Positions 7,305-46,378 of a DNA stretch of 63,331 nucleotides are shown piece after piece. The stretch is from the NCBI GenBank assembly GCA_964478335.1, contig CAYZIC010000003.1, positions 1 to 63,331 of the forward strand, given 5' to 3'. A program made the position numbers and the translations under genes. Position 1 is the first letter of the stretch; each line of letters begins with the position of its first letter. The stretch is from an uncultured Lentisphaeraceae bacterium (GTDB taxonomy: Bacteria > Verrucomicrobiota > Kiritimatiellia > RFP12 > DVOR01). The notes below the pieces were generated by a model, which saw only the letters and a program-made list of their open reading frames with translations, did no database searches and was not told the origin of the DNA.

Positions 7305-7356
7305 TAATTTGGCAAAAAAGAAAAGCACAAAGGCACACAAGTAGGGGAAAAAATGG

Positions 7357-7459
7357 GGCTCTTGTGCGATTTTAGTGGATTGAAATACAAAAGAGGGGAA
7401 ATGACAGCCCCTGTATCCTTCTAATTAATGGAGATGTCGTGTGCGTGAGAGCACCCAGC
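7357..7459 (+). repeat. roughly 100-nt dispersed element, copy 1 (shared with 46281..46378)
   Basis: Near-identical by eye to 46281..46378. It starts with the TIR-like head GGCTCTTGTGCGATTTTAGTGG and contains GCCCCTGTATCCTTCTAATTAATGGAGATG.CGTGTGCGTGAGAG. Confidence 0.75.
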
Positions 7460-7536
7460 CACACTGGCCGAGGCTCGCTCAAGCTCAAATGTCTCACTGT
7501 GCTAAATTTAACATAGTGAGATATTTGAAGATATCT

Positions 7537-7755
7537 GGCTCTTGTTTAATTTTAGTGGGTCGGAAATTAAAAGGTAGGAGCGTAGCGACTGTTCTTGGCG
7601 GCAAAGCCGAGGCACGGCTCCAAGCCGTAATCAGGCATCGCGCAGCGTCCTTTTGCGGCTAAAAATCTGGCAGTCCTACGCGCCCCCCAAAGACTCCGCA
7701 CGACTCGACAAAGCCACAAGCGCCCCGTTTTACCCATTAAAATCGTGCAAGAGCC
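7537..7755. mobile_element. MITE-like element (219 bp) with 23-bp terminal inverted repeats
   Basis: The left end GGCTCTTGTTTAATTTTAGTGGG (7537..7559) pairs with the right end CCCATTAAAATCGTGCAAGAGCC (7733..7755). The interior aligns with 32628..32856 and, inverted, with 18309..18420. No ORF. Confidence 0.7.
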
Positions 7756-7760
7756 TTTGC

Positions 7761-7783
7761 GGCTTTTGTGCGATTATCGTGAG
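7761..7783 (+). repeat. solo or degenerate copy of the 23-bp TIR
   Basis: GGCTTTTGTGCGATTATCGTGAG lies immediately after the right end of the MITE-like element. Confidence 0.5.
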
Positions 7784-18194: not shown

Positions 18195-18532
18195 AACAAT
18201 GGTCCTTTAAAAATAAGATAAAAATGCTTCTAAATCAATATTCTAAATAATAACACAGTCGTGGCTCTCTTGTCAAAAGAAATATGGCTCTTGTGCGATT
18301 TTAATGGGTGAAATGGGGCTCTTGTGGCTTTGTCGAGTCGTGCGGGATCTTTTCTAGGGGTAGCGTAGGTCAGCCAGGGGTAGCGTAGGGGGCGCTTTTT
18401 CTCCCACAAAAGGTTCACAAAGGGGATCGCTTAGATAAAACTCGCAAGCCCATTTTAATCTAAGCGCTCCCTAGTTATCTTTGGGAAATGGATGGGGCTG
18501 CAGTCCCATACCCCACTTGCGGCCTGCGGCGG

Positions 18533-18569
18533 AGCGGCTACGCCGCTGGCATGTAGAATGTAGAATGTA
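18533..18569 (-). repeat. hairpin plus (GAATGTA)n heptamer element, intergenic copy
   Basis: AGCGGC-TAC-GCCGCT hairpin followed by GCATGTA GAATGTA GAATGTA. The same architecture occurs inside gluQ and the S8 protease gene. Confidence 0.8.
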
Positions 18570-18602
18570 CCAGTGTTAGCGACTGGCTCGTTGCAGGGCA
18601 TA

Positions 18603-18795
18603 GCGACTGCGTCGCTAGATTTTGGGAATTGGGATATGGGATTTAGTCTCTGATAGCGGCCTATGGCCTTAGAGCGCTCCCGCGGGTCGCTTGTGGAGAG
18701 TCCCCAACACCTAAACTCTAAACCCTACACTCCCGTAGAGATGACCTTGGTCCTCGCTACGGGAGCCGCGATACTCCTGCCTTTTATCCTTCCGC
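18603..18795 (+). repeat. conserved module B, copy 1 (candidate structured RNA or MITE cargo)
   Basis: Aligns along its length with 33182..33367. It contains GGGATTT-type microrepeats, CGGCC-TAT-GGCC and TCGC...GCGA hairpins, and TCCCGTAGAGATGACCTTGG. Confidence 0.7.
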
Positions 18796-18850
18796 CCCAT
18801 TAAAATCGCACAAGAGCCCTAAAAGTCCGCAGGAGTGCTTCGGGTGAGCG

Positions 18851-27637: not shown

Positions 27638-29050
27638 ATGTCCGCATCCTCCGCATCAAGCAATAAGCCTCAAGCAAACGATGCTCTCGCGCCAAAAACT
27701 AAAGGCCGTAGACCAAAGGCAATAGGTGGTAAAGCCACCCATGAATTCACCCCCACTAATGCCACGAAGTTTTTTGTACCCTTGGTGATCCAAACGGCCT
27801 CCCAATGCCTCACCTATCCCCTCGTAGGAGCGATTGTTGCCCACGGCATCCATGGCAAGCTCGAATTTGGAGCATTCTCCCAAGGCCTCATGGTGATGTT
27901 TTTGTTTGGATGCTTAGGTTATGGGCTAATCACCACAGGCATGGTATTTGCAAAGGACAAAGTCAGCTACGCACGATTTATTCGCGTCAACCATATTGTG
28001 ATGGGCTGTACAATCGCTCTGCAATGTATCTGCATGCTCCCACCGATATCAAATGTCCTCTTTAAGACGCTACTTGGATTATCGGGCTTTCAATTTGACA
28101 TTGCGCGCTACTCAATGTTCTCTGCGATTATTGCACAGATCGGATTTTTCATTCGTAATATTCCACAAGTCATTCTTTATAATGCCCACCAGACCTCTCG
28201 CGCAAACTTTGCGACGATTTTACGCATCATCATCACCGCACTCCTCTCGCCACTTTTTCTCACCCTTGGGCTATTTGGATGGCTCTGGGGCATCATCGCA
28301 CTGACGCTCCCTATCTTTCTTGAAATAGGGCTCATGTTTATCTTTGCCTGGCCCCATATCAAATCCCTCCCCACCTACACCTCAGAGACAAGAGAAGCCA
28401 GAATCTTGCGTCAATTTCTCTTTAACATCCCCCTCTCACTGGGAGGGCTACTCCTGGCAGCATCCAGTATCGTACTCAATGCCGTGATCAATCGCACCCC
28501 AGATGGTGCCAATATGCAAACGATTCACGTCATTGCCATGGGCATCATCAACCCGATCTCGCTTGGTGCACTGCGCACCCAAGCCGTCGCGATTGGCTTT
28601 CCACAATGCGGCAAACACGATCATCGTACCTTTTACTTTTCGCTCTATGCGGGGATCGTTCTTTGCGGAGTCATACTCCTGCTACAGCTCCCTCTCTTTA
28701 GCAACTGGTACTTCATTGATCTACAAAACTTGCTACCCAAAGACCTCCCCCTCGCCAAAGAGTCCCTACTGCTTGCAGCCATCATTCCCCTTTTGCAAAC
28801 CATACGCGGTCACGCAGAAGGTCTCGCCTCCTACCGTAAACGCCCCAACGCCGTGCTTGCAGGACAAGCAGCCTTTCTCTCGACCCTCGTTATTAGCCTG
28901 CTCATCTGCTTCGAGCTCAATGTACCAGGCTACAAAATGGGCGTTATATCACTCGCCATCTCCATGCTTGCAACGGGATTAACCGTTCGCCTCGGCCTTC
29001 TCCTTGCCCAATTTGAGCCACCATCCACACCTAACGGGATCCACCAATGA
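27638..29050 (+). CDS. polytopic membrane protein (possible MATE/MOP-superfamily transporter)
   Basis: 470 aa with about 12 hydrophobic segments after a basic N-terminal tail. No diagnostic motif was recognised. Confidence 0.4.
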   Translation: MSASSASSNKPQANDALAPKTKGRRPKAIGGKATHEFTPTNATKFFVPLVIQTASQCLTYPLVGAIVAHGIHGKLEFGAFSQGLMVMFLFGCLGYGLITTGMVFAKDKVSYARFIRVNHIVMGCTIALQCICMLPPISNVLFKTLLGLSGFQFDIARYSMFSAIIAQIGFFIRNIPQVILYNAHQTSRANFATILRIIITALLSPLFLTLGLFGWLWGIIALTLPIFLEIGLMFIFAWPHIKSLPTYTSETREARILRQFLFNIPLSLGGLLLAASSIVLNAVINRTPDGANMQTIHVIAMGIINPISLGALRTQAVAIGFPQCGKHDHRTFYFSLYAGIVLCGVILLLQLPLFSNWYFIDLQNLLPKDLPLAKESLLLAAIIPLLQTIRGHAEGLASYRKRPNAVLAGQAAFLSTLVISLLICFELNVPGYKMGVISLAISMLATGLTVRLGLLLAQFEPPSTPNGIHQ

Positions 29051-30204
29051 GCACCCGCATCGGCAGACTAGCCCCCAGCCCAACAGGCGCCCTACACCTA
29101 GGCAACATCCGCACCTTTATGATTGCCTGGCTACAAATGCGCGCCTGCGGCGGCCAAATCCGTATGCGCATCGAGGACCTCGACCACCCCAAACACAAAC
29201 CCGGAGCCACCGCAGCCCTGCTTGACGACCTCCAGTGGTTAGGCTTTGATTGGGATGGCCCCATTGTCACCCAGAGCCATCGCCACCCCCTCTATCAAAC
29301 CGCCCTCGAGCAGCTCATTCGTAATGAGCAGGTCTACCCTTGCATTTGTAGTCGTCGCGACATCCAACAAGCCGCCTCCGCCCCCCACGCAGGTGAAATC
29401 CTCCATTACCCAGGCACATGCCGCGGCCGCTTCACCAGCGGCGCAGCCGCCCTCAAGGCTATATCTGGCGGCGCAGCCGCCCCACATTCTACATTCGACA
29501 TTCCACATGCTAGCGGCTCCGCCGCTGTCGCGTGGCGATTCAAGATTCCCACCGGCAGCATCGCCAGCCTCATCGACCGCTTTGCAGGCCCCTATACAGA
29601 GGAGCCATCCACCAGCAGCGGCGACTTCGTCGTTGCCCGTGGCTACGCCCCACTAGAACAAGAGGCAAGCTACGCTTGCGCAACAAGCAAAGCAAGCGCA
29701 GCTTGCACGCAGTCAATGCCTGATGCTAGAGGCGGGGCACCTGCCTCTTATTGCGCAATGCCTGTTGCAGGCGGCTCTGCCGCTCCACATTCCACATTCC
29801 ACATTCCACATTCTAGTGGCTCCGCCGCTATCGCCTACACCCTCGCCGTAGTTCTAGACGATGCAGAGATGGGAGTCACCGATGTCGTACGAGGAGACGA
29901 TCTACTCGCAGCCACGCCCTCACAACTACACCTCTACCAAGCCTTTGGCAAGACACCCCCGACCTTTTGCCACGTGCCCCTCGTCATCGGTACCGACGGA
30001 CGCCGCCTTGCCAAACGCCACGGCGACACCCGCATCAGCACCTATCGCGCAGCCGGCATCACCCCAGAGCAAATCATTGGCACCCTCGCCCGCAGTTGCC
30101 GCTGGACAAACAGCCCCACCATGACACTCGGACAACTCATTCCCCACTTTGATTTAGCCACGATTCCCCATTCACCCCTCATTTGGCAGGAGACCCTCTT
30201 ATGA
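29047..30204 (+). CDS. gluQ: tRNA glutamyl-Q(34) synthetase (GluQRS) carrying repeat-derived in-frame insertions
   Basis: Class-I signature RLAPSPTGALHLGN, then ..AYTLAVVLDD.., ..VVRGDDLL.., ..RRLAKRHGD. It is 385 aa, against about 300 aa for the family. Confidence 0.8.
   Translation: MSTRIGRLAPSPTGALHLGNIRTFMIAWLQMRACGGQIRMRIEDLDHPKHKPGATAALLDDLQWLGFDWDGPIVTQSHRHPLYQTALEQLIRNEQVYPCICSRRDIQQAASAPHAGEILHYPGTCRGRFTSGAAALKAISGGAAAPHSTFDIPHASGSAAVAWRFKIPTGSIASLIDRFAGPYTEEPSTSSGDFVVARGYAPLEQEASYACATSKASAACTQSMPDARGGAPASYCAMPVAGGSAAPHSTFHIPHSSGSAAIAYTLAVVLDDAEMGVTDVVRGDDLLAATPSQLHLYQAFGKTPPTFCHVPLVIGTDGRRLAKRHGDTRISTYRAAGITPEQIIGTLARSCRWTNSPTMTLGQLIPHFDLATIPHSPLIWQETLL
29467..29526 (+). repeat. 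hairpin plus heptamer element, in-frame copy 1 in gluQ (60 nt)
   Basis: GGCGGCGCAGCCGCC, CACATTC TACATTC GACATTC CACAT, then the AGCGGC-TCC-GCCGCT hairpin. Translated as GGAAAPHSTFDIPHASGSAA. Confidence 0.8.
29770..29829 (+). repeat. hairpin plus heptamer element, in-frame copy 2 in gluQ (60 nt)
   Basis: GGCGGCTCTGCCGCT, four copies of CACATTC, then TAGTGGCTCCGCCGCT. Translated as GGSAAPHSTFHIPHSSGSAA. Confidence 0.8.
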
Positions 30205-31106: not shown

Positions 31107-32479
31107 ATGCAAACATTTGATCTCATCATCATCGGCTGGGGCAAAGCCAGCAAAACCCTTGCCAGCCATGCCGCAGCTAACAACCTCCAAGTCGCCATGA
31201 TTGAAAAAGACCCCACCATGTATGGCGGAACCTGCGTCAATGTCGGCTGCATTCCCAGCAAATCACTCATCACCCAAGCCAGCAGAGCCCACTGGGCCAA
31301 TCTCACCACCTGGGCAGACAAAGAGGGAGCCTTTCAAGCAGCGATTGCCGAAAAACGCCGCCTCACGACCCTCCTACGTGGCAAAATGCACACCAAGCTC
31401 GCCACCGCAGATGGCGTTACGCTCTTTGACGGAATGGGTTCATTCACAGGGCCCAACCAAGTCACCGTCACCACCGCCGATGGCACCACGACCATCCTGA
31501 CCGCCCCACGGATTGTCATCAATACCGGCTCCACCCCCGTCATGCCCCCCATTCCAGGTTTGGCAGACAATCCCTACGTCCACACCAGCACCGGACTGCT
31601 CGACCTCGACACCCTACCCAAACGCCTCCTCATCATTGGCGGCGGCTACATTGGCCTCGAATTCGCCTCTCTCTATAGCCGCTTTGGTTCAGCAGTGACC
31701 GTCGTCGACCCCGGTGACACCTTCATCCCCCGCGAAGACCGCGACATCGCCCAAACGATAGCCAGCATCTTAGCCGACGCGGCGTCACCATTCGCCTCGA
31801 GACCCACTGCACCCAGATCACCCAGAGCGACAGCTGCGCCCAAGCCCGACTTGAGACCTCCAACGGGACAAGCGAAGTGTCCGATTACGATGCAGTCTTG
31901 GTCGCCACAGGCCGCCGCCCCAATACCGATGGGCTCAATGCCCAAGCAGCTGGGGTTGAGCTCACCGCACGAGGAGCCATTGTCGTCGACGACCTCTTAC
32001 GCACCTCCGCTCCTGGCGTTTGGGCTGCAGGCGACATCGCAGGTGGACACCAATTCACCTACATCTCCCTCGACGACTACCGCATCATTGCCCCCCAAAT
32101 CATCGGCCAAGAAAGTAACCGCACCACCCAAAACCGCACCCCAGTGCCCTACAACGTTTTCCTTGAGCCCTCCTTCGCCCGCGTCGGCCTCAACGAAACC
32201 GATGCCCGCAACCTGGGTCTCAATTACCGCATCGTCACCCTCCCCACTGCAGCTATTCCCAAAGCTCAAGTGTTGCGCGAGACAGCCGGCATGCTCAAAG
32301 CCCTCATCGACAACCAGACCAACGAAATCCTCGGCGCGATGCTGATTTGTCCCGATGCGCACGAATTGATCAATCTCATTGTTGATGCCATGGCCAACCA
32401 CGCCCCCTACACCAGCCTCCGCGACCGCATCTACACCCACCCCTCCATGAGCGAAGCCCTCAACGACCTCTTTGTCTAA
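31107..32479 (+). pseudogene. class-I pyridine nucleotide-disulfide oxidoreductase (RclA/Lpd-like), frameshifted near 31780
   Basis: The N-terminal frame has FDLIIIGWGKA.. and the redox disulfide GGTCVNVGCIPSK, readable up to ..ILADA. The sense sequence continues in the +2 frame from 31781 (GVTIRLETHC..DAVLVATGRRPNTDGL..GVWAAGDI..THPSMSEAL). The original frame runs on as P/S/T-rich nonsense to 32345. Confidence 0.7.
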
Positions 32480-32509: not shown

Positions 32510-32566
32510 CTACGCCATACACACATGACCGCTCGTACAACGAGCGATCATGTGTGTATGGCGTAG
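32510..32566. repeat. 57-nt perfect palindrome (19-bp arms plus an inner 5-bp hairpin)
   Basis: CTACGCCATACACACATGA (32510..32528) pairs with TCATGTGTGTATGGCGTAG (32548..32566). The centre is GCTCG-TACAA-CGAGC. It lies 31 nt after the stop at 32479 and has no U-tract. Confidence 0.8.
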
Positions 32567-32627
32567 ATTGTGGATGTTGGAGTTGAGAGGTTGCTGGGGC
32601 AAGAATTGCCAATAAGCGACAAAAAAA

Positions 32628-32856
32628 GGCTCTTGTTTGATTTTAGTGAGTCGAAAGTATAAAAGGTAGGAGTTCCAAGAGGCGGAGTCTCCTCACGGCT
32701 CCCAGCCGTAATCAGGCATAGCGCAGCGTCCCTTTGTGACATCTTTGTGAACCTTTTGTGGGAGAAAAAGCACCTCCATATGTAGCTTCCCAAAAAGATC
32801 CCGTATGACTCGACAAAGCCACAACAGCATTTGACCCATTAAATAGAAGAAGAGCC
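32628..32856. mobile_element. MITE-like element (229 bp), homologous to 7537..7755
   Basis: The left end GGCTCTTGTTTGATTTTAGTGAG pairs with the right end CCCATTAAATAGAAGAAGAGCC. The interior shares ..AAAAGGTAGGAG.., ..CGGCTCC.AGCCGTAATCAGGCAT.GCGCAGCGTCC.., ..GACTCGACAAAGCCACAA.. with the 7537 copy. Confidence 0.7.
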
Positions 32857-33181
32857 CAAAGAGGTGAAAATGAAACAGCAGAAATGTACCTAAAATGCTC
32901 AGAGAAAGCAAGCACTAACTTTAGAAGCTAGACTTAAACTTTCAGGACTTGTCTTAGAGTTCCTAAGAGGGAAGCCTAAGAAAGAGAAGAATGGTCATAG
33001 TCCATCTGTGGGAAGGTGTAATTCCTGGCCTAAGGACTCCTGCTTCCCTCACAGGGGGGATCTCTTATACAAAGAGGGCTATTTTATTATACAATAGCCT
33101 TTACGAAAGGCCCTAGAATGGAGATTGGGGAAGGAGCGGAGCCTCCTAGCTCGAGTCTAGAGTGCGAGTGCTAATGGTGGG

Positions 33182-33389
33182 GCGGCTGCGTCGCTGGATT
33201 TTGGGATTTGGGATTTACTCTCTGATAGCGGCCTGTGGCCTTTGAGGGCTCTCGCTGGTCGCTTGTGGTGGGACCCCCAACTCCTAACAGCTAAACCCTA
33301 ACTCCCGTAGAGATGACCTTGGCCCTCGCTACGACAGCTGCGATACTCCTGCTTCTTATCCTTTAGCCCCGCTAAAATCGCACAAGAGC
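33182..33389 (+). repeat. module B copy 2, ending in a TIR copy
   Basis: Aligns with 18603..18818 and ends CCCGCTAAAATCGCACAAGAGC (33368..33389). With the left TIR at 32628 this could be a 762-bp composite element. Confidence 0.7.
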
Positions 33390-33567
33390 GGCTCTTATCT
33401 CAAGCATCTCTCATACGGGTCTATTGTTGCCTCCTCTACCTAGGATCGGTCTAGATATGTTGCAATGGGCTTTTGGGCGACTTGTGGCGCTTTGGCTTGC
33501 GACTTGCGCCGTGGGGGGGCGTTTTTTTGGGGGAAGTGTCGACAACTGGTCTAATCTGGGTAGCTCT

Positions 33568-36500
33568 CTACCGAAGGTAGAGGCGGAGACCGGGTTGATA
33601 GAGGTCGTAGTTGGCGCGTAGCTCGAGAATTTGATTGCGGTCGCCTTTGACATCAAAGGTGACTGTGGGGCTAAAAATGTGGGGCAGGAGGTGGCTGGCG
33701 GTGCCTGACCACCGTCTAAAGCGTTGGCGGGAAAAGGTTGGGGCGGTGAGGGTGAGGAGGTCGCCTGCGTGCTTGGGGTGGTCGGTCTGGTGGTCAAGGG
33801 CTAGGAGGCGAATGGTCACGGGCCAGGTCTCGCGGGTGAGGGTCTTGGTGATGATGGGGGAATCGATGAAGTTGCGTTTTATGGCGATGGCGCATAGGGT
33901 GGCATCTTCTCTGAGGGGAATGGGGGCTGTGTAAATGGGGGATGCTCCTGTGGGGGTGCTGCCGTCTAGGGTATAGTGTAGGGTGGCGCCTTTTGTGGGG
34001 CTGGTCAGGACGATCATCATGGAGCCGGGGAAATAGGTGGCATCGCCCCACACGCCATCGACGATTGGTCGGCTACACTGTGGTCGGGCAAAGGGGGTGT
34101 AGGTGACGATGAGCGGAACGCTCTGGCTTTCGCCTTGTTTGGCAATAAGGGTGAGGGTATACGCTCGGTCTGTGGTCAGGGGGATGGGCTGGGTGTAGGG
34201 GAGCATTTTATCCTCTCCTTGGATGGTATAGAGGACCTGCGCATCGGGTGTATCTGTGGGTGGGGTGATGGTCAACTCAAATGGGTCTATGAAAAAGCCT
34301 GGGCTATGGCTGAGCTGGGGTTGACCAAGGGGCATGGTCTTGGGGCTGGTGAGTGTCAAGGTGGGCAATCCCTCTGTGGGATGGCTCCCCCACCCTGCTT
34401 GGCCAGCTTGAAGGTCGGTGAGTACTTGGGGGGCTTTGAGCGCGGCTAGGGTCTGCATCTGCAGGTCGGCGGCGTTGGTCGTGGTGGCGGTTTGTTCGAG
34501 GAGATAAACGGATTGTGCTTGGGCGAGGCTGAGGGTGCCGATAGCGGTGCCATACACTAAGCCGCAACCTTGGCCATCTGCGTTGGTAAAGGTTGGGGCG
34601 ATGAGGGCGCGGGTTAAGGAAAAGGTTTTAGCGTCGGGGCCGGGTTCGAAGGTGCCGATGATGCCGCCTGCGGCGACTCCGTCGCCTGAGCTACGAATAA
34701 TGGTGCGAATGTCGAGGTCGGTCAGGGGGACATTGCCGATGAGGGTACCAATGGCGCCGCCGAGTGTGAGCTGGCCTGTGCTGGCATTCTCTCCGCTCAG
34801 GGTGGTCGTGTGGCTGGCGCAGTGGGTGACGCTGGGGACGAGCTCGCTGCGCTCGCTGGAATGTAGAATGTTGAATGTAGAATGTGAGGCTGGGTCGCTT
34901 AGGGTCGCATCTGCTCGGCCAACGAGGGCGCCGAGGGTGTAGGGGCGAAAGGCGGAACTGGTGGAGGATTTGTTGGCAAGCTTGAGGTCGCTGACGCTGC
35001 TTTGCTCAAGGGTGCCATAGAGGGCGCCGACAAGGCCGCCGAGGGTGCCATTCCCATGAATGGTGCCACCTTGCACGTGGAGGTTGTGGAGGTGACCAAA
35101 GCTACTCCCTGCAAAGGCGCCGATTGTGCGATTGGCTTCTCCGCCGTCAAGGGTGGGATTGACGAGGGTGAGGTCTTTGACATGGGCTGATGCGGTGAGG
35201 GTGGCGAAGAGGCCGAGCATGGTATTGTTTGCGAGAAACGCATGATCTTTGGCGGGCAATTCTGTGGGGAGTGCGTGGCGTAGGCGCAGGTTATACCAGG
35301 TGTGATGGCCGCCATCGAGGGTGCCGCTAAAGGGGCGCATCTTGCCGTCGGGGAGGCTTTGGGTAGTGTCGAGGCCAATGGTTGGTTGGGCGGGGCTATT
35401 GGCGAAGTCAAGATCGCGGTCAACGTGAATGGTCTTGCCGGTAAAGGCGTTGCCGCGGTTGACGAGTTGGGCGAGGACGTAGAGGTCTGTGGGGGTGGAG
35501 AGGGTGTAGGGGGAATCAACGCTGCCAGTGCCGCGCTGCACCCAATAGGAGGCGGTGACGGATTGGGAGGCGCTCCAGCCGTCTCTAAAGGCTCGTGCGC
35601 GTAGGGTGGCGGATTGGGTGAGGCGGATGGGGCGGGTGTATTCGAGCGAGGTCGCGGGGGTGGGTTCGCTGCCGTCGAGGGTATAATAGATGGTGGCCTC
35701 GGGTGTGGTGCAGCTCATGGAGATTTCAGGCGTTTGGCCTTGGAAAATGCCGCCTTGGTGGGAGAGGGTTGCGGGGGCGACGAGGTGGGCGATTTGAACG
35801 TCATCGAGCCAGAGTGCGCCCTCGGTATCATTTGCGTGGGCGGCTTTGTCGAGGACCCAACGCAGGGTGTAGCGGCCGCTTTTCTCAATAGCGTGGGTGA
35901 CGGTCTCCCAGTCATCGGTGGTTTGGGTGAGGGTGGTGAGGGGTTCACCAAAGGCACTGGGCTGGGTGCCGTGGGGTTGCTTGACGACATAAAATGCGCC
36001 GCGGGCTTGCTCGGTCAGGCCATTGCCTCGCCAGCGGAAACGAATTGTCGCGGGGGTTTCGATCTCGGTGTCGAGGAGGGAACGTTCTAGCGCGGAGACT
36101 TCTCCCGCTTGGGCGGCCCATCCGCCAGTGGCGGATGGATCCTCAACCGGTCGCCAGGCGTAGGTGTCTTTGATGGTGAGGTTGGGGGTGTCGATTGCGT
36201 GAAGGAGTGTGGGCAGGGGTTTGGTGGGGGCTGTGACCTCAAAGGCAGGTGACTGCGCCATAAAGGCTGTGTCAAAGATGTCAAAGGCGTGGATGAACCA
36301 TTTGCTGCCGACAAAAGATTCTGGGAGGGTAATGGTGAAGGTGCGATTGGCGATGTCGGTGCTGCCATCGATGTCGCCATCGAGCCAGATCTGTTTGATC
36401 TCGTAGGATTCGGAGAGGTCCTCTTTAGCTAAAAAGAAGTAGTAGAGGTCGGACATCGGTAAGAAGTGCTTGACGCGGATCGGTTCGCCAGCTACATAAC

Positions 36501-38700
36501 TGGGAGGATTGTCTAGCTCTGGTGCATCAGCACTGGCGGTGGAGACGACAATGGCACAGGAGCTGCGGTCGATGTCAAAGGTTGCGCTGTCGCCGTAGAT
36601 GGTGCGGTCGTCTTCGTCGTAGATGCGAATGAAGTAGACTTCGCCCTCGGGGGTTTCCCAGCCATTGCCAACGAGTGTGATCTCTTTGCGAATCTCGGTG
36701 TCGGGGGAAATAGATAGGCGTCCGACGCGTTTCTCAAAGGTGACCTCGCCGCCTGTGGCTTGTCTGCGCATAAGCGAAACAATGACAGTCGGTGCGTGGG
36801 AAACGCGAAAGGTAAAGGGCACGTGTGCTGCGTCGACCTTTTGGTCGGCGGTGGGATTAGAGACGCGGATCCATTCGACGACGCCGGGGGCTTTGACCTT
36901 GAAGCGCTGCGTGTAGGCAAAGGAGCCTGCGGTGCGAGCTGGAATGTCGAATGTAGAATGTGGACTGTTGGTGGTGTCTGCGGTGTGGACTTTGATAAAA
37001 TACTGGCGGCCGATGAGGTCTTTGGGGAGGGGTACAGCAATTGGGGTGGATTGATTAGGGGTAATCGAGGAGAGGGTTTTGAGGAGGATGGGGGCAAAGG
37101 CGGGATCTTGATTCATGAGGGTGAATTTGAGGGGCTGATCATGCGATGCAGTTACCGTAAGGGTCAGCGTGTCGCCAGATTCGTAGGTGACGCGGGTGAG
37201 AGCTTGGACGCTCAAGAAGTGGGCGTCTTTGGAGAGGGCTTTGGCGCAATCAACGCGCGCGCCGGTCGTGCAGATCGATTTGAGCTCGGGCACGGGATGG
37301 GCGGTTTGGTAGAGACGACGAATGACGTCGCGATAGGTCCAGGTGGGGTTTTGTTCGTAAATCATGGACACGGTCGCAGCGACAATTGGCGTGGCCATGG
37401 AGGTGCCGTCCCAAGAGGCGTAGGCATTGGGGGCATCTGAGGTGCAGGAGATAATATTCGTACCCGGAGCTGCAATATCTGTCGAGGTGGCTCCGTAGCT
37501 CGTCTGCCAACCATGACTTGCGGGGAGATCATTTGGATCGGTGGCGACAACGGTCACGATATTATCCGAATCATAGCTCGCAGGATAGGTCGGCAAGATG
37601 TCGTTGTCATTGCCATCATTGCCCGCTGCGACGACGAGGATTGTGCCATTGTCTGCACCCATTTCATTGATGAGGGCGTGCTCAGCAGGATCATAGCCGG
37701 CGAATGTGGGGTTGCGACCAAAGCTGCAGCTCAAGACTTTGATTTGGTTGTCGTAGGCCCACTGATAGCCGTCAATAATATCGGCATCGCCCATATAGCT
37801 GATGGGGCCACGAATGGAGGTCAAGTTGGCCACTTGTGCAACCCCACAAATACCCAAATCGTTATTGGGATCTGCACCAATGATACCCGAACAGTGCGAG
37901 CCGTGTCCATGGTGATCGGCAGGACTCGGATCATCTCGCAGAGCCGACACTCGTTGCGTGATATTCGCTTGCAGATCCTCATGATCAACCCGAATGCCCG
38001 TATCAAAGACCGCACAGGCCGTCTGTGTAAACCCAAAGAGCCCACGCTCCCACACGGTGCGTACTCCGATTTGATCCAAATGCCACTGCTGTTTGGCCAA
38101 TGGGTCATTGGGATTGGGCGATGGCTGCGGAGCCTCAATCTGTGGCAAACTAAAGGTCATCGGTGAAAGATACGCTGCCTTGACCGAGTCATCGACTCCT
38201 GCCTTAAAATGCGCGAGCCAGGCTTCGTTGCCTTGCCAATCTTTAAGTGAGAGGCGCACGCGCACAATTAATCCACGGCCGTAGCGACGAATGATCCTTG
38301 CACGGCCACCGAGCTGACAGTAACGCTGCTCAAAATCCTCCACCGCTGCGTGGGTTGAGAAAATCATCATGACCTCATCGAGTCTCTCTCCTGAGAGAAA
38401 GCGCCGCACCTCTGTCGTCTGCCCGGTCGTGCTAGAGGCAAGGGTCTCAATAGTCTCGGTAATGCGAAAATAACGCATCGATGCCGATCGCATCACGCGC
38501 GTCTCGATGGTTTGCCCACTACTACCTGCGGTCATCCCCATAGGGCCTGCTCCGTGCTGTCGCGAACGCGACACCGCGATCTCTTTAGCATCCCAATCAA
38601 TATTTGAGGGGGCGTAATCAACCACCCATGGCTTTGCCAAGATCGTAGTCACTGGCATACTCAAAACAACAACAAGTATCGCAAAAAGCATCTTAATCAT
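33568..38700 (-). CDS. giant secreted subtilisin-like (S8) serine protease with Ig-like, GLUG-like and chitobiase/Fn3-associated-type repeats
   Basis: 1710 aa with a signal peptide MIKMLFAILVVVLSMPVTTILA and an S8 triad context: VFDTGIRVDHEDL (Asp), HGHGSHCSG (His), AAGNDGN, GTSMATP (Ser). Three ..(I/L)(Y/H)YT(L/I)(D/Q)G(S/E).. modules follow. A GLUG-like region reads ..IGAFAGSSFG..LGGLVGALYG. Confidence 0.85.
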   Translation of the reverse strand: MIKMLFAILVVVLSMPVTTILAKPWVVDYAPSNIDWDAKEIAVSRSRQHGAGPMGMTAGSSGQTIETRVMRSASMRYFRITETIETLASSTTGQTTEVRRFLSGERLDEVMMIFSTHAAVEDFEQRYCQLGGRARIIRRYGRGLIVRVRLSLKDWQGNEAWLAHFKAGVDDSVKAAYLSPMTFSLPQIEAPQPSPNPNDPLAKQQWHLDQIGVRTVWERGLFGFTQTACAVFDTGIRVDHEDLQANITQRVSALRDDPSPADHHGHGSHCSGIIGADPNNDLGICGVAQVANLTSIRGPISYMGDADIIDGYQWAYDNQIKVLSCSFGRNPTFAGYDPAEHALINEMGADNGTILVVAAGNDGNDNDILPTYPASYDSDNIVTVVATDPNDLPASHGWQTSYGATSTDIAAPGTNIISCTSDAPNAYASWDGTSMATPIVAATVSMIYEQNPTWTYRDVIRRLYQTAHPVPELKSICTTGARVDCAKALSKDAHFLSVQALTRVTYESGDTLTLTVTASHDQPLKFTLMNQDPAFAPILLKTLSSITPNQSTPIAVPLPKDLIGRQYFIKVHTADTTNSPHSTFDIPARTAGSFAYTQRFKVKAPGVVEWIRVSNPTADQKVDAAHVPFTFRVSHAPTVIVSLMRRQATGGEVTFEKRVGRLSISPDTEIRKEITLVGNGWETPEGEVYFIRIYDEDDRTIYGDSATFDIDRSSCAIVVSTASADAPELDNPPSYVAGEPIRVKHFLPMSDLYYFFLAKEDLSESYEIKQIWLDGDIDGSTDIANRTFTITLPESFVGSKWFIHAFDIFDTAFMAQSPAFEVTAPTKPLPTLLHAIDTPNLTIKDTYAWRPVEDPSATGGWAAQAGEVSALERSLLDTEIETPATIRFRWRGNGLTEQARGAFYVVKQPHGTQPSAFGEPLTTLTQTTDDWETVTHAIEKSGRYTLRWVLDKAAHANDTEGALWLDDVQIAHLVAPATLSHQGGIFQGQTPEISMSCTTPEATIYYTLDGSEPTPATSLEYTRPIRLTQSATLRARAFRDGWSASQSVTASYWVQRGTGSVDSPYTLSTPTDLYVLAQLVNRGNAFTGKTIHVDRDLDFANSPAQPTIGLDTTQSLPDGKMRPFSGTLDGGHHTWYNLRLRHALPTELPAKDHAFLANNTMLGLFATLTASAHVKDLTLVNPTLDGGEANRTIGAFAGSSFGHLHNLHVQGGTIHGNGTLGGLVGALYGTLEQSSVSDLKLANKSSTSSAFRPYTLGALVGRADATLSDPASHSTFNILHSSERSELVPSVTHCASHTTTLSGENASTGQLTLGGAIGTLIGNVPLTDLDIRTIIRSSGDGVAAGGIIGTFEPGPDAKTFSLTRALIAPTFTNADGQGCGLVYGTAIGTLSLAQAQSVYLLEQTATTTNAADLQMQTLAALKAPQVLTDLQAGQAGWGSHPTEGLPTLTLTSPKTMPLGQPQLSHSPGFFIDPFELTITPPTDTPDAQVLYTIQGEDKMLPYTQPIPLTTDRAYTLTLIAKQGESQSVPLIVTYTPFARPQCSRPIVDGVWGDATYFPGSMMIVLTSPTKGATLHYTLDGSTPTGASPIYTAPIPLREDATLCAIAIKRNFIDSPIITKTLTRETWPVTIRLLALDHQTDHPKHAGDLLTLTAPTFSRQRFRRWSGTASHLLPHIFSPTVTFDVKGDRNQILELRANYDLYQPGLRLYLR
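34841..34886 (-). repeat. hairpin plus heptamer element, in-frame copy in the protease gene
   Basis: The plus strand reads AGCTCGCTGCGCTCGCT GGAATGT AGAATGT TGAATGT AGAATGT G. Translated on the minus strand as ..ASHSTFNILHSSERSEL. Confidence 0.75.
36941..36963 (-). repeat. heptamer element, second in-frame copy in the protease gene
   Basis: The plus strand reads GGAATGT CGAATGT AGAATGT GG. Translated as ..SPHSTFDIPA. Confidence 0.7.
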
Positions 38701-38731
38701 GGGTGTCCTCCTAAAACGGCCTGGGACTGAT

Positions 38732-38760
38732 TGGCTACGCCGCTAGAATGTGGGATGTGG
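38732..38760 (-). repeat. hairpin plus heptamer element, intergenic copy between sdaA and the protease gene
   Basis: TGGC-TAC-GCCGCT followed by AGAATGT GGGATGT GG, 32-60 nt upstream of the protease start codon. Confidence 0.65.
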
Positions 38761-46182: not shown

Positions 46183-46280
46183 TAAATGAATCAATAAATC
46201 AAGTCTAAAAAGGCACCTGAGCGCAAGAATGTAGAGAGTGTGCGCCACTAGGACAGCAGCGCAGTGACCATTTCCGACGT

Positions 46281-46378
46281 GTGTGCGATTTTAGTGGATG
46301 GAAAGACAAAAGAGTGCCAATGACTGCCCCTGTATCCTTCTAATTAATGGAAATGCCGTGTGCGTGAGAGTATCCAGC
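46281..46378 (+). repeat. roughly 100-nt dispersed element, copy 2 (shared with 7357..7459)
   Basis: GTGTGCGATTTTAGTGGATGGAAAGACAAAAGAG...GCCCCTGTATCCTTCTAATTAATGGAAATGCCGTGTGCGTGAGAG is nearly identical to copy 1 by eye. Confidence 0.75.

Follow-up and report, generated by a model that had tools for sequence, protein, structure and literature searches.

We analyzed a 63,331-nucleotide (nt) stretch of a contig from an uncultured Lentisphaeraceae bacterium (the window; all copy counts below are within these ~63 kb) and identified a small repeated DNA element in which GC-rich hairpins flank tandem NACATTC heptamers. Six NACATTC arrays are present, all with one polarity in which the heptamers precede the hairpin: two lie within the gene for tRNA glutamyl-Q34 synthetase (GluQRS), two within a gene for an S8 peptidase, and two in intergenic DNA. 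The reading that we favor, at a probability of roughly 70%, is that this is a lineage-specific mosaic repeat, similar to repetitive extragenic palindromes (REPs) and Rickettsia palindromic elements (RPEs), whose copies entered surface loops of GluQRS and the S8 peptidase, where they persist as translated, disordered passenger sequence.

Two copies of the element lie in frame within the GluQRS gene

The GluQRS gene and the features within it are as follows.

29047-30204, plus strand: GluQRS, an intact open reading frame (ORF) of 385 amino acids (aa).
29437-29451, plus strand: upstream hairpin AGCGGC-GCA-GCCGCC, which encodes SGAAA and forms a direct repeat (15 nt) of the beginning of block 1.
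29467-29526, plus strand: block 1 (insert A), with a hairpin at 29467-29481, a heptamer array at 29482-29510, and a hairpin at 29512-29526; translation GGAAAPHSTFDIPHASGSAA.
29644-29769, plus strand: the 42-aa upstream portion of insert B, which contains hairpins at 29665-29679, 29692-29706, and 29728-29748 and the palindrome TTGCGCAA.
29770-29829, plus strand: block 2 (the 3' end of insert B), with a hairpin at 29770-29784, heptamers at 29785-29813, and a hairpin at 29815-29829; translation GGSAAPHSTFHIPHSSGSAA.

Both blocks show the same layout of a GC hairpin with a 6-bp stem and a 3-nt loop, four NACATTC heptamers, one spacer base, and a second hairpin, AG(C/T)GGC-TCC-GCCGCT. Block 1 reads GGCGGC-GCA-GCCGCC + CCACATTC TACATTC GACATTC CACATGC + T + AGCGGC-TCC-GCCGCT. 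Block 2 reads GGCGGC-TCT-GCCGCT + CCACATTC (CACATTC)x3 + T + AGTGGC-TCC-GCCGCT, with a G.T wobble instead of a Watson-Crick pair closing two stems. The blocks are identical at 53 of 60 nt, and the first base of each is a codon boundary in the ORF 29047-30204(+). Tandem Repeats Finder scored the block 2 array as period 7 with 4.3 copies and 100% matches, and block 1 is a member of repeat family D9. A first-pass annotation of this DNA had described two 60-nt blocks of common architecture, read in frame within a GluQRS gene longer than its family norm, together with extra triloop hairpins at 29665-29679 and 29692-29706 and a duplicate of the GC arm at about 29437. We recovered all of these features, with the coordinates, sequences, and translations that it had given.

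The two hairpins upstream of block 2 are GCAAGC-TAC-GCTTGC (29665-29679) and GCAAGC-GCA-GCTTGC (29692-29706). The hairpin at 29437-29451 matches intergenic hairpins at 33180-33197 (17/18 nt) and 18534-18549 (15/16 nt). This hairpin may be native loop sequence, as its surroundings, SGAAALKAIS, align with SWAEAADAIA of homologues. The translated stretch of the inserts is predicted to include ...AAPHSTFHIPHSSGSAA....

The inserts spare the conserved core of GluQRS

The host protein was assigned to GluQRS by a TIGR03838 score of 254.8 bits, with the match falling in two stretches divided by the inserts, and Pfam tRNA-synt_1c also matches the ORF in two stretches. Members of the family have a class I catalytic domain like that of GluRS and lack an anticodon-binding domain, and the window protein has this organization. 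We compared it with 119 homologues in an alignment of 120 sequences, for which the nearest proteins were drawn from a collection of 5.8 billion proteins. Most homologues are 298 to 330 aa long versus 385 aa here; the nearest are 54 to 66% identical over aligned columns, and the named hits come from Kiritimatiellia, at low identity. All 73 columns that are invariant in the alignment are retained in the window protein.

An alignment with orthologues was one of the checks suggested by the first-pass annotation. Positions 202 to 258, which make up insert B (~57 to 59 aa) between GDFVVARG and AYTLAVVLDD, hold residues in none of the 119 homologues. Residues 140 to 156, the core of block 1, are occupied in just 1 to 68 of the 119, and the alignment thus places block 1 in a length-variable loop. 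Long Pro/Ala/Gly-rich insertions (~40 to 50 aa) occur in the same loop in two other GluQRS lineages (P0030 and P0090), and the insert A loop appears to be a recurrent permissive site. The YTLAVVLDD helix contains an invariant tyrosine, Tyr264, and block 2 ends five codons ahead of it; we take this residue to be the equivalent of the glutamate-pocket tyrosine in GluRS and GluQRS structures.

Mapping of the inserts onto a structure was part of the same suggested check. An AlphaFold2 model built on the GluQRS alignment had a mean predicted local distance difference test (pLDDT) score of 83, with the core above 90 in most 10-residue blocks. The pLDDT was ~60 for residues 141 to 160, below 50 for residues 151 to 155, and 34 to 56 for residues 201 to 260, where a short helix is the sole regular secondary structure. 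The model matches E. coli GluQRS (4a91/1nzj) with a target-normalized template modeling score of 0.80 to 0.82. These results are consistent with inserts that protrude as low-confidence loops from a confidently predicted GluQRS fold.

Copies of the element occur in a second gene and in intergenic DNA

Four of the six NACATTC arrays of the window are inside ORFs. The copies outside GluQRS, the second host gene, and two variant modules are as follows.

33568-38700, minus strand: S8 peptidase ORF, 1710 aa.
36923-36969, minus strand: S8 site 1 copy (heptamers 36942-36969), family D5; translation SPHSTFDIPARTAG.
34840-34887, minus strand: S8 site 2 copy (heptamers 34859-34887), family D5; translation SHSTFNILHSSERSEL.
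18533-18570, minus strand: intergenic copy (heptamers 18549-18570), GTACATTC TACATTC TACATGC + C + AGCGGC-GTA-GCCGCT.
38730-38759, minus strand: intergenic copy with a decayed hairpin (heptamers 38746-38759), CACATCC CACATTC + T + AGCGGC-GTA-GCCAAT.
18602-18645, plus strand: variant module, hairpin AGCGAC-TGC-GTCGCT followed by AGATTTT GGGAATT GGGATAT GGGATTT.
33181-33220, plus strand: variant module of family D6, hairpin GGCGGC-TGC-GTCGCT followed by GGATTTT GGGATTT GGGATTT.

We compared the S8 peptidase with its 20 closest homologues, which are 31 to 36% identical to it; the named hit belongs to Candidatus Spyradenecus (Lentisphaerota), at low identity. At site 1, the 20 homologues show a gap of ~9 to 14 residues exactly at the position of SPHSTFDIPARTAG, which is bordered by the conserved RGY...V and FAYSS.FRVK blocks. 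Site 2 lies within a longer segment that is missing from all 20. Judged from the two alignments, three or more of the four coding copies represent clean lineage-specific insertions. Of the intergenic copies, the one at 38730-38759 is just upstream of the ribosome-binding site of the S8 gene.

An identical 24-mer, CCACATTCTACATTCGACATTCCA, is common to GluQRS block 1 and S8 site 1, which are 7 kb apart in unrelated genes, and the variable first bases of its heptamers occur in the same order. This match would be difficult to obtain if slippage had acted independently in the two genes, and it favors the copying of an array already formed. The variant modules at 18602 and 33181 retain the hairpin, and their heptamer differs (GGGAWWT). 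They differ from each other by exactly one 7-nt unit, which shows that heptamer number changes by slippage.

The earlier suggestion that this is a dispersed DNA repeat and not a protein motif is supported by these data: the module is present in non-coding DNA and in the S8 gene, the 24-mer is in common, and no similar peptide was found (see below). The non-coding copies that had been listed at about 18533 and 38732 are real and lie between ORFs. The list itself was incomplete, as it lacked the two S8 copies (34840-34887 and 36923-36969); the variant modules (18602-18645 and 33181-33220) are also added here.

The element is overrepresented in the window. A two-heptamer pattern had 12 matches with 0.08 expected, AGCGGC-N3-GCCGCT with up to one mismatch had 5 with 0.33 expected, and a looser hairpin pattern had 37 versus 10.7 +/- 3.7 expected. 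Perfect GC-rich hairpins with a 6-bp stem and a 3-nt loop, judged against dinucleotide shuffles, numbered 23 versus 7.3 +/- 3.0, and 4 of the 23 are inside the GluQRS inserts. Tandem Repeats Finder reported period-7 arrays at 18551, 29484, 29784, 34859, and 36942. The same non-random layout is shared by the six NACATTC sites and the two variant sites.

Across nine hairpin copies, 90.6% of cells are paired. The insert regions fold with z scores of -2.5 (29644-29835) and -3.0 relative to shuffled sequence, a gain that comes from local hairpins only; the minimum-energy folds contain only local 15-nt hairpins and leave the heptamer core unpaired. Rfam and tRNA scans found no known RNA gene anywhere in the window.

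Spread of a preformed module or origin in place

In the model that we favor, the element is a mosaic of GC-rich 6-bp/3-nt hairpins flanking two to four tandem NACATTC heptamers. Its copies lie in intergenic DNA, and others would have inserted into at least two genes unrelated to each other, those for GluQRS and the S8 peptidase. Preformed modules would have spread as REPs or RPEs do, through either single-strand, hairpin-dependent transposition or recombination between copies, and heptamer number drifts by slippage. Copies would persist in genes where the length keeps the frame, the sense strand is free of stops, and the site is a loop outside the conserved core. The enzyme would otherwise stay intact, with the encoded peptides projecting from it as disordered loops. 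We presume that the inserts are retained in mRNA and protein and that the copies are neutral or selfish passengers, not functional domains.

Several observations weigh against this model. The hairpins of the S8 copies are degenerate, and no transposase or REP-associated tyrosine transposase (RAYT) was found among 10 small ORFs of the window scanned against Pfam. Hairpin covariation was not significant: there are two compensatory changes, and the score was equaled in 107 to 142 of 500 shuffles. Because there are just two such changes and shuffles score equally high, selection on hairpin structure is not demonstrated. The 126 nt 5' of block 2 in insert B have no second copy anywhere in the window; at site B, the dispersed element, as judged from this comparison, is only the last 60 nt of a ~177-nt lineage-specific insert. 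The GluQRS pair fits two independent insertions or one insertion plus intragenic duplication or gene conversion alike. No close relative was found, and hence there is no empty site that would prove or date the insertion. Finally, the copy number and the coding/intergenic ratio given here are those of 63 kb.

The repeats might instead have formed in place without mobility, through slippage arrays beside existing GC hairpins and palindrome-templated duplication of the arms, with the GluQRS pair arising by intragenic duplication or gene conversion. The one-heptamer difference between the paralogous variant modules fits this explanation, as do the joining of one hairpin to different heptamers at 18602 and 33181 and the direct repetition at 29467 of the 15-nt hairpin at 29437, possibly made up of native loop codons. 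Heptanucleotides are also the commonest long simple-sequence repeat of prokaryotes (PMC4679880). However, the identical 24-mer, with its variable positions in the same order, sits in two unrelated genes 7 kb apart, and the composite layout was found at 6 to 8 sites. Arrays in other genomes are not enriched for hairpins (4.7% versus 3.0%, among the matches listed), so hairpins are not general seeds. We consider a purely local origin unlikely.

The encoded peptides and the integrity of the reading frame

In all six arrays, the three frames of the NACATTC strand are free of stop codons, and the opposite strand has stops in four of the six. The NACATTC strand is the sense strand in every coding copy, and all six copies are oriented as the local genes. 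The four coding copies are in frame and stop-free, and all four share one reading phase, xCA CAT TCx ACA TTC, an agreement that could be due to chance (~1 in 27, n = 4). They encode low-complexity Gly/Ala/Ser sequence plus PHSTF(H/D)IPH. We set aside splicing, an intein, or translational bypass by inference, given that the inserts are in frame and stop-free and that the expected features are missing.

With the 64-aa insert B as query, an exhaustive HMMER search of 1.84 billion representative proteins had just two hits, the window's own protein and an unrelated cadherin-like repeat protein. The block peptides were also used in a word-based search; it gave no candidates, a weak negative in that it missed the window's own protein too. 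The absence of a similar peptide from the 1.84 billion representative proteins indicates that the inserts are not a conserved protein motif. This result bears on the possibility that selection acts on the protein, with the His-rich PHSTFHIPH loop recruited into GluQRS and the S8 peptidase, for example, as a metal-binding or interaction module. The richness in histidine and the common phase of all four coding copies, which gives PHSTF... or HSTF..., are what such selection would predict. Yet a 7-nt array yields one cyclic peptide whatever the frame, non-coding DNA contains the same nucleotide module, pLDDT is low in the inserts, and the two host proteins are functionally unrelated; with a peptide that is conserved in no other protein, selection at this level is very improbable.

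Arrays of 7-nt units within ORFs could also act as contingency loci, that is, as frameshift switches that turn GluQRS and a surface protease on and off. Seven is not a multiple of three, and a one-unit change of the kind observed between the paralogues would shift the frame; moreover, the S8 host, large and secreted or surface-located, is of a class typical of phase variation. The arrays have three to four units, far below the length of experimentally characterized switches, and only one of the four coding arrays is free of imperfections. GluQRS is also atypical as a contingency gene, and we give this explanation very little credence.

Misassembly, to which repeats are prone, or decay of GluQRS into a pseudogene that gathers junk is a remote prospect: both NCBIfam scores of GluQRS are slightly under the curated cut-offs (254.8 versus 276.7 and 248.6 versus 250), but these low scores arise because the inserts divide the match in two, and the frame is kept without stops in 4/4 coding copies, all family-invariant residues are intact, and the core is predicted at high confidence.

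Comparison with known repeats

The first-pass annotation had named the Rickettsia palindromic elements as the known precedent and had offered no described equivalent. Those elements, reportedly described by Ogata et al. in 2000, are said to be selfish repeats that lie in frame in functional genes, including housekeeping and RNA-related genes, and to be translated and to occupy surface positions compatible with function. RPE-1 is reportedly a palindrome of ~100 to 150 bp that folds as a whole. The present element is like an RPE in its in-frame insertion into functional ORFs at sites that spare the fold. Unlike RPE-1, it is a 60-nt module with local 15-nt hairpins, a core that is not self-complementary, and no element-wide palindrome, and it comes from another phylum with no sequence relationship detected. 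The statement that no equivalent has been described held up, in that the element was unmatched in the searched literature; the precedent proved to be wider, as it includes intragenic REPs (PMC3733652).

GTAG- and CGTC-tagged REPs have stems of 6 to 13 bp and loops of 2 to 3 bp in many families (PMC3733652, Di Nocera et al. 2013). REPs occur wholly inside ORFs and in frame in many species, with the highest counts in Opitutus terrae, a member of the Planctomycetes-Verrucomicrobia-Chlamydiae (PVC) group, and Rickettsia conorii; dimers encode 20 to 30 aa and clusters 43 to 82 aa, some ORFs have two insertions, and the hosts include tRNA synthetase genes (PMC3733652). These documented in-frame intragenic REPs remove most of the conceptual novelty: the phenomenon is already known, and it is this particular element that is undescribed.

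The resemblance to GTAG-tagged REPs lies in the dispersed GC-rich stem-loops, which in REPs often form dimers or groups and here have 6-bp stems and 3-nt loops. A place for the element in the GTAG superfamily is possible. In these REPs the tag is an unpaired GTAG, or GYAG/GTRG/GTGG, at one end of the stem; here, on the antisense strand, every heptamer contains GT(A/G/C/T)G. Most O. terrae GTAG-20 elements carry GTGG as their tag variant (PMC3733652), and a GTGG abuts the 5' hairpin on the antisense strand of both GluQRS blocks. Unlike in GTAG-tagged REPs, the best-conserved hairpin here, the 3' one, is preceded by CYAG (CTAG or CCAG). The hairpins also enclose tandem heptamers, an arrangement for which no counterpart among REPs has been described. 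REPs are mostly extragenic, whereas four of the six window copies are intragenic, and no RAYT was found among the 10 small window ORFs tested.

Dispersed heptanucleotide repeats are known from cyanobacteria as the short tandemly repeated repetitive (STRR) heptamers. The closest analogue of the core of the present element is the TAACTGA heptamer sets of Beggiatoaceae, Cyanobacteria, and Bacteroidetes, which have 2 to 6 or more units at many loci (PMC4679880). Like these sets, NACATTC arrays consist of tandem 7-nt units at many loci and are also spread across phyla. The TAACTGA sets are almost all intergenic, often just 5' of start codons, with an orientation constrained by stops on one strand (PMC4679880). 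In contrast, the NACATTC copies here are mostly in ORFs and are coupled to a conserved hairpin, and TAACTGA sets are not reported in frame in housekeeping enzymes.

The MITEs (transposable elements of the miniature inverted-repeat type) of Coxiella burnetii, which are insertion sequences that have lost their transposase, are reported to be small non-autonomous repeats tied to protein evolution (PMC5896051), and we take this to include insertion within ORFs. Compared with these MITEs, the module here lacks such terminal inverted repeats and any visible target duplication. The hairpin-plus-heptamer mosaic had no match in the searched literature and databases, and in the searchable literature the array sequences turned up in two unrelated eukaryotic papers and in no bacterial context.

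Other repeats in the window

A 539-bp MITE-like unit with 26-nt inverted termini (18283-18308 and 18796-18821) that are 96% complementary surrounds the intergenic copy at 18533. This unit encloses intergenic hairpin-heptamer modules, and a paralogue of the unit at 18283-18821 is present at ~33170-33390. We sought a presence/absence difference for the NACATTC module between the units at ~18 and ~33 kb, but the left flanks are non-homologous and no clean indel could be called. The composite element and the terminal inverted-repeat sequence had no match in Joint Genome Institute (JGI) metagenome contigs (exact match for the repeat).

GGCTCTTGTGCGATTTTA(A/G)TGGG, together with its reverse complement, makes up a second repeat family of ~10 intergenic occurrences in the window, within 18283-18821 and at 7354-7377, 7534-7557, 7733-7781, 32625-32648, 33368-33390, and 46273-46296. 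Those at 18283-18308 and 18796-18821 form the inverted termini of the MITE-like unit. Three pairs of intergenic segments are paralogous: 18629-18817 and 33201-33389 (189 nt, 82% identity), 7363-7459 and 46282-46378 (97 nt, 90%), and 7613-7655 and 32694-32736 (43 nt, 93%). None of these segments, which may represent pieces of MITE-like units or else unknown non-coding RNAs, has an Rfam match. A near-perfect long palindrome at 32510-32560, CTACGCCATACACACATGA(C/T)CGCTCGT-ACA-ACGAGCG(A/G)TCATGTGTGTATGGCGTAG, lies just downstream of an ORF ending at 32345 and may be a terminator or another repeat element.

NACATTC arrays in other genomes

We scanned the GTDB species genomes for three tandem NACATTC units and found at least 119 loci in many phyla. 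The AGCGGC hairpin was present at none of these loci among the matches listed. Within the same matches, a hairpin was found beside the arrays in 4.7% of flanks versus 3.0% of control windows, and the idea that hairpins generally adjoin, and might seed, NACATTC arrays was rejected. The lack of a general hairpin enrichment suggests that the hairpin-heptamer coupling is specific to the lineage of the window.

Among the matches listed, at least 12 arrays in at least 10 ORFs are placed at least 80 codons inside ATG-started ORFs (L016, L027, L030, L050, L057, L071, L085, L106, and L112 are loci with in-gene arrays). Six array hosts were confirmed by Pfam, namely, DnaX, RsmB/F, CinA, NadB, a GT9 heptosyltransferase, and TilS; Mfd, DsbD, and a Kelch-transporter fusion were recognized by eye only. 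The hosts of in-frame arrays belong to Bacteroidota, Verrucomicrobiota, and other phyla. The MoCF domain of CinA covers 223 residues versus a 144-position profile, with ~60 aa of HSTFDI(Q/R) repeats in the protein, and the PP-loop domain of TilS covers 214 residues versus a 182-position profile, with both arms of an inverted array pair translated. These domain spans are consistent with array-containing insertions. In-frame NACATTC arrays, with a predicted reading of HSTF(N/D)I(Q/R)..., are not confined to the genome of the window.

Inverted pairs of the form (GAATGTT)n - short spacer - (AACATTC)n are frequent in unrelated genomes among the matches listed (L003, L019, L021, L031, L039, L054, L069, L077, L088, L095, L102, L105, L106, and L118) and would form long heptamer hairpins. 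Different heptamer arrays are often found side by side (L006, L018, L070, and L091).

These arrays raise the possibility, which we regard as doubtful, that NACATTC arrays are an unrecognized class of cross-phylum DNA element that repeatedly enters housekeeping ORFs in frame, was captured by REP-like hairpins in the present lineage, and carries in the GT(A/G)G of its heptamer a RAYT-type cleavage tag.

For the organism studied here, the finding means that a small repeat adds ~80 residues to an intact tRNA-modification enzyme in a poorly sampled PVC-like lineage. It also carries a warning for annotation, as automatic pipelines could fail to name this GluQRS when both family scores are pushed below the cut-off by the inserts alone. 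The part most worth following is the in-frame heptamer arrays across phyla. If the cross-phylum reading is true, this would be a new mobile mosaic that also makes slippage-prone frameshift switches inside genes. In-frame heptamers in the housekeeping genes of several phyla would, if true, challenge the usual view that coding DNA excludes repeats with a unit length not divisible by three, and the arrays would provide a natural data set of permissive sites for loop insertion.

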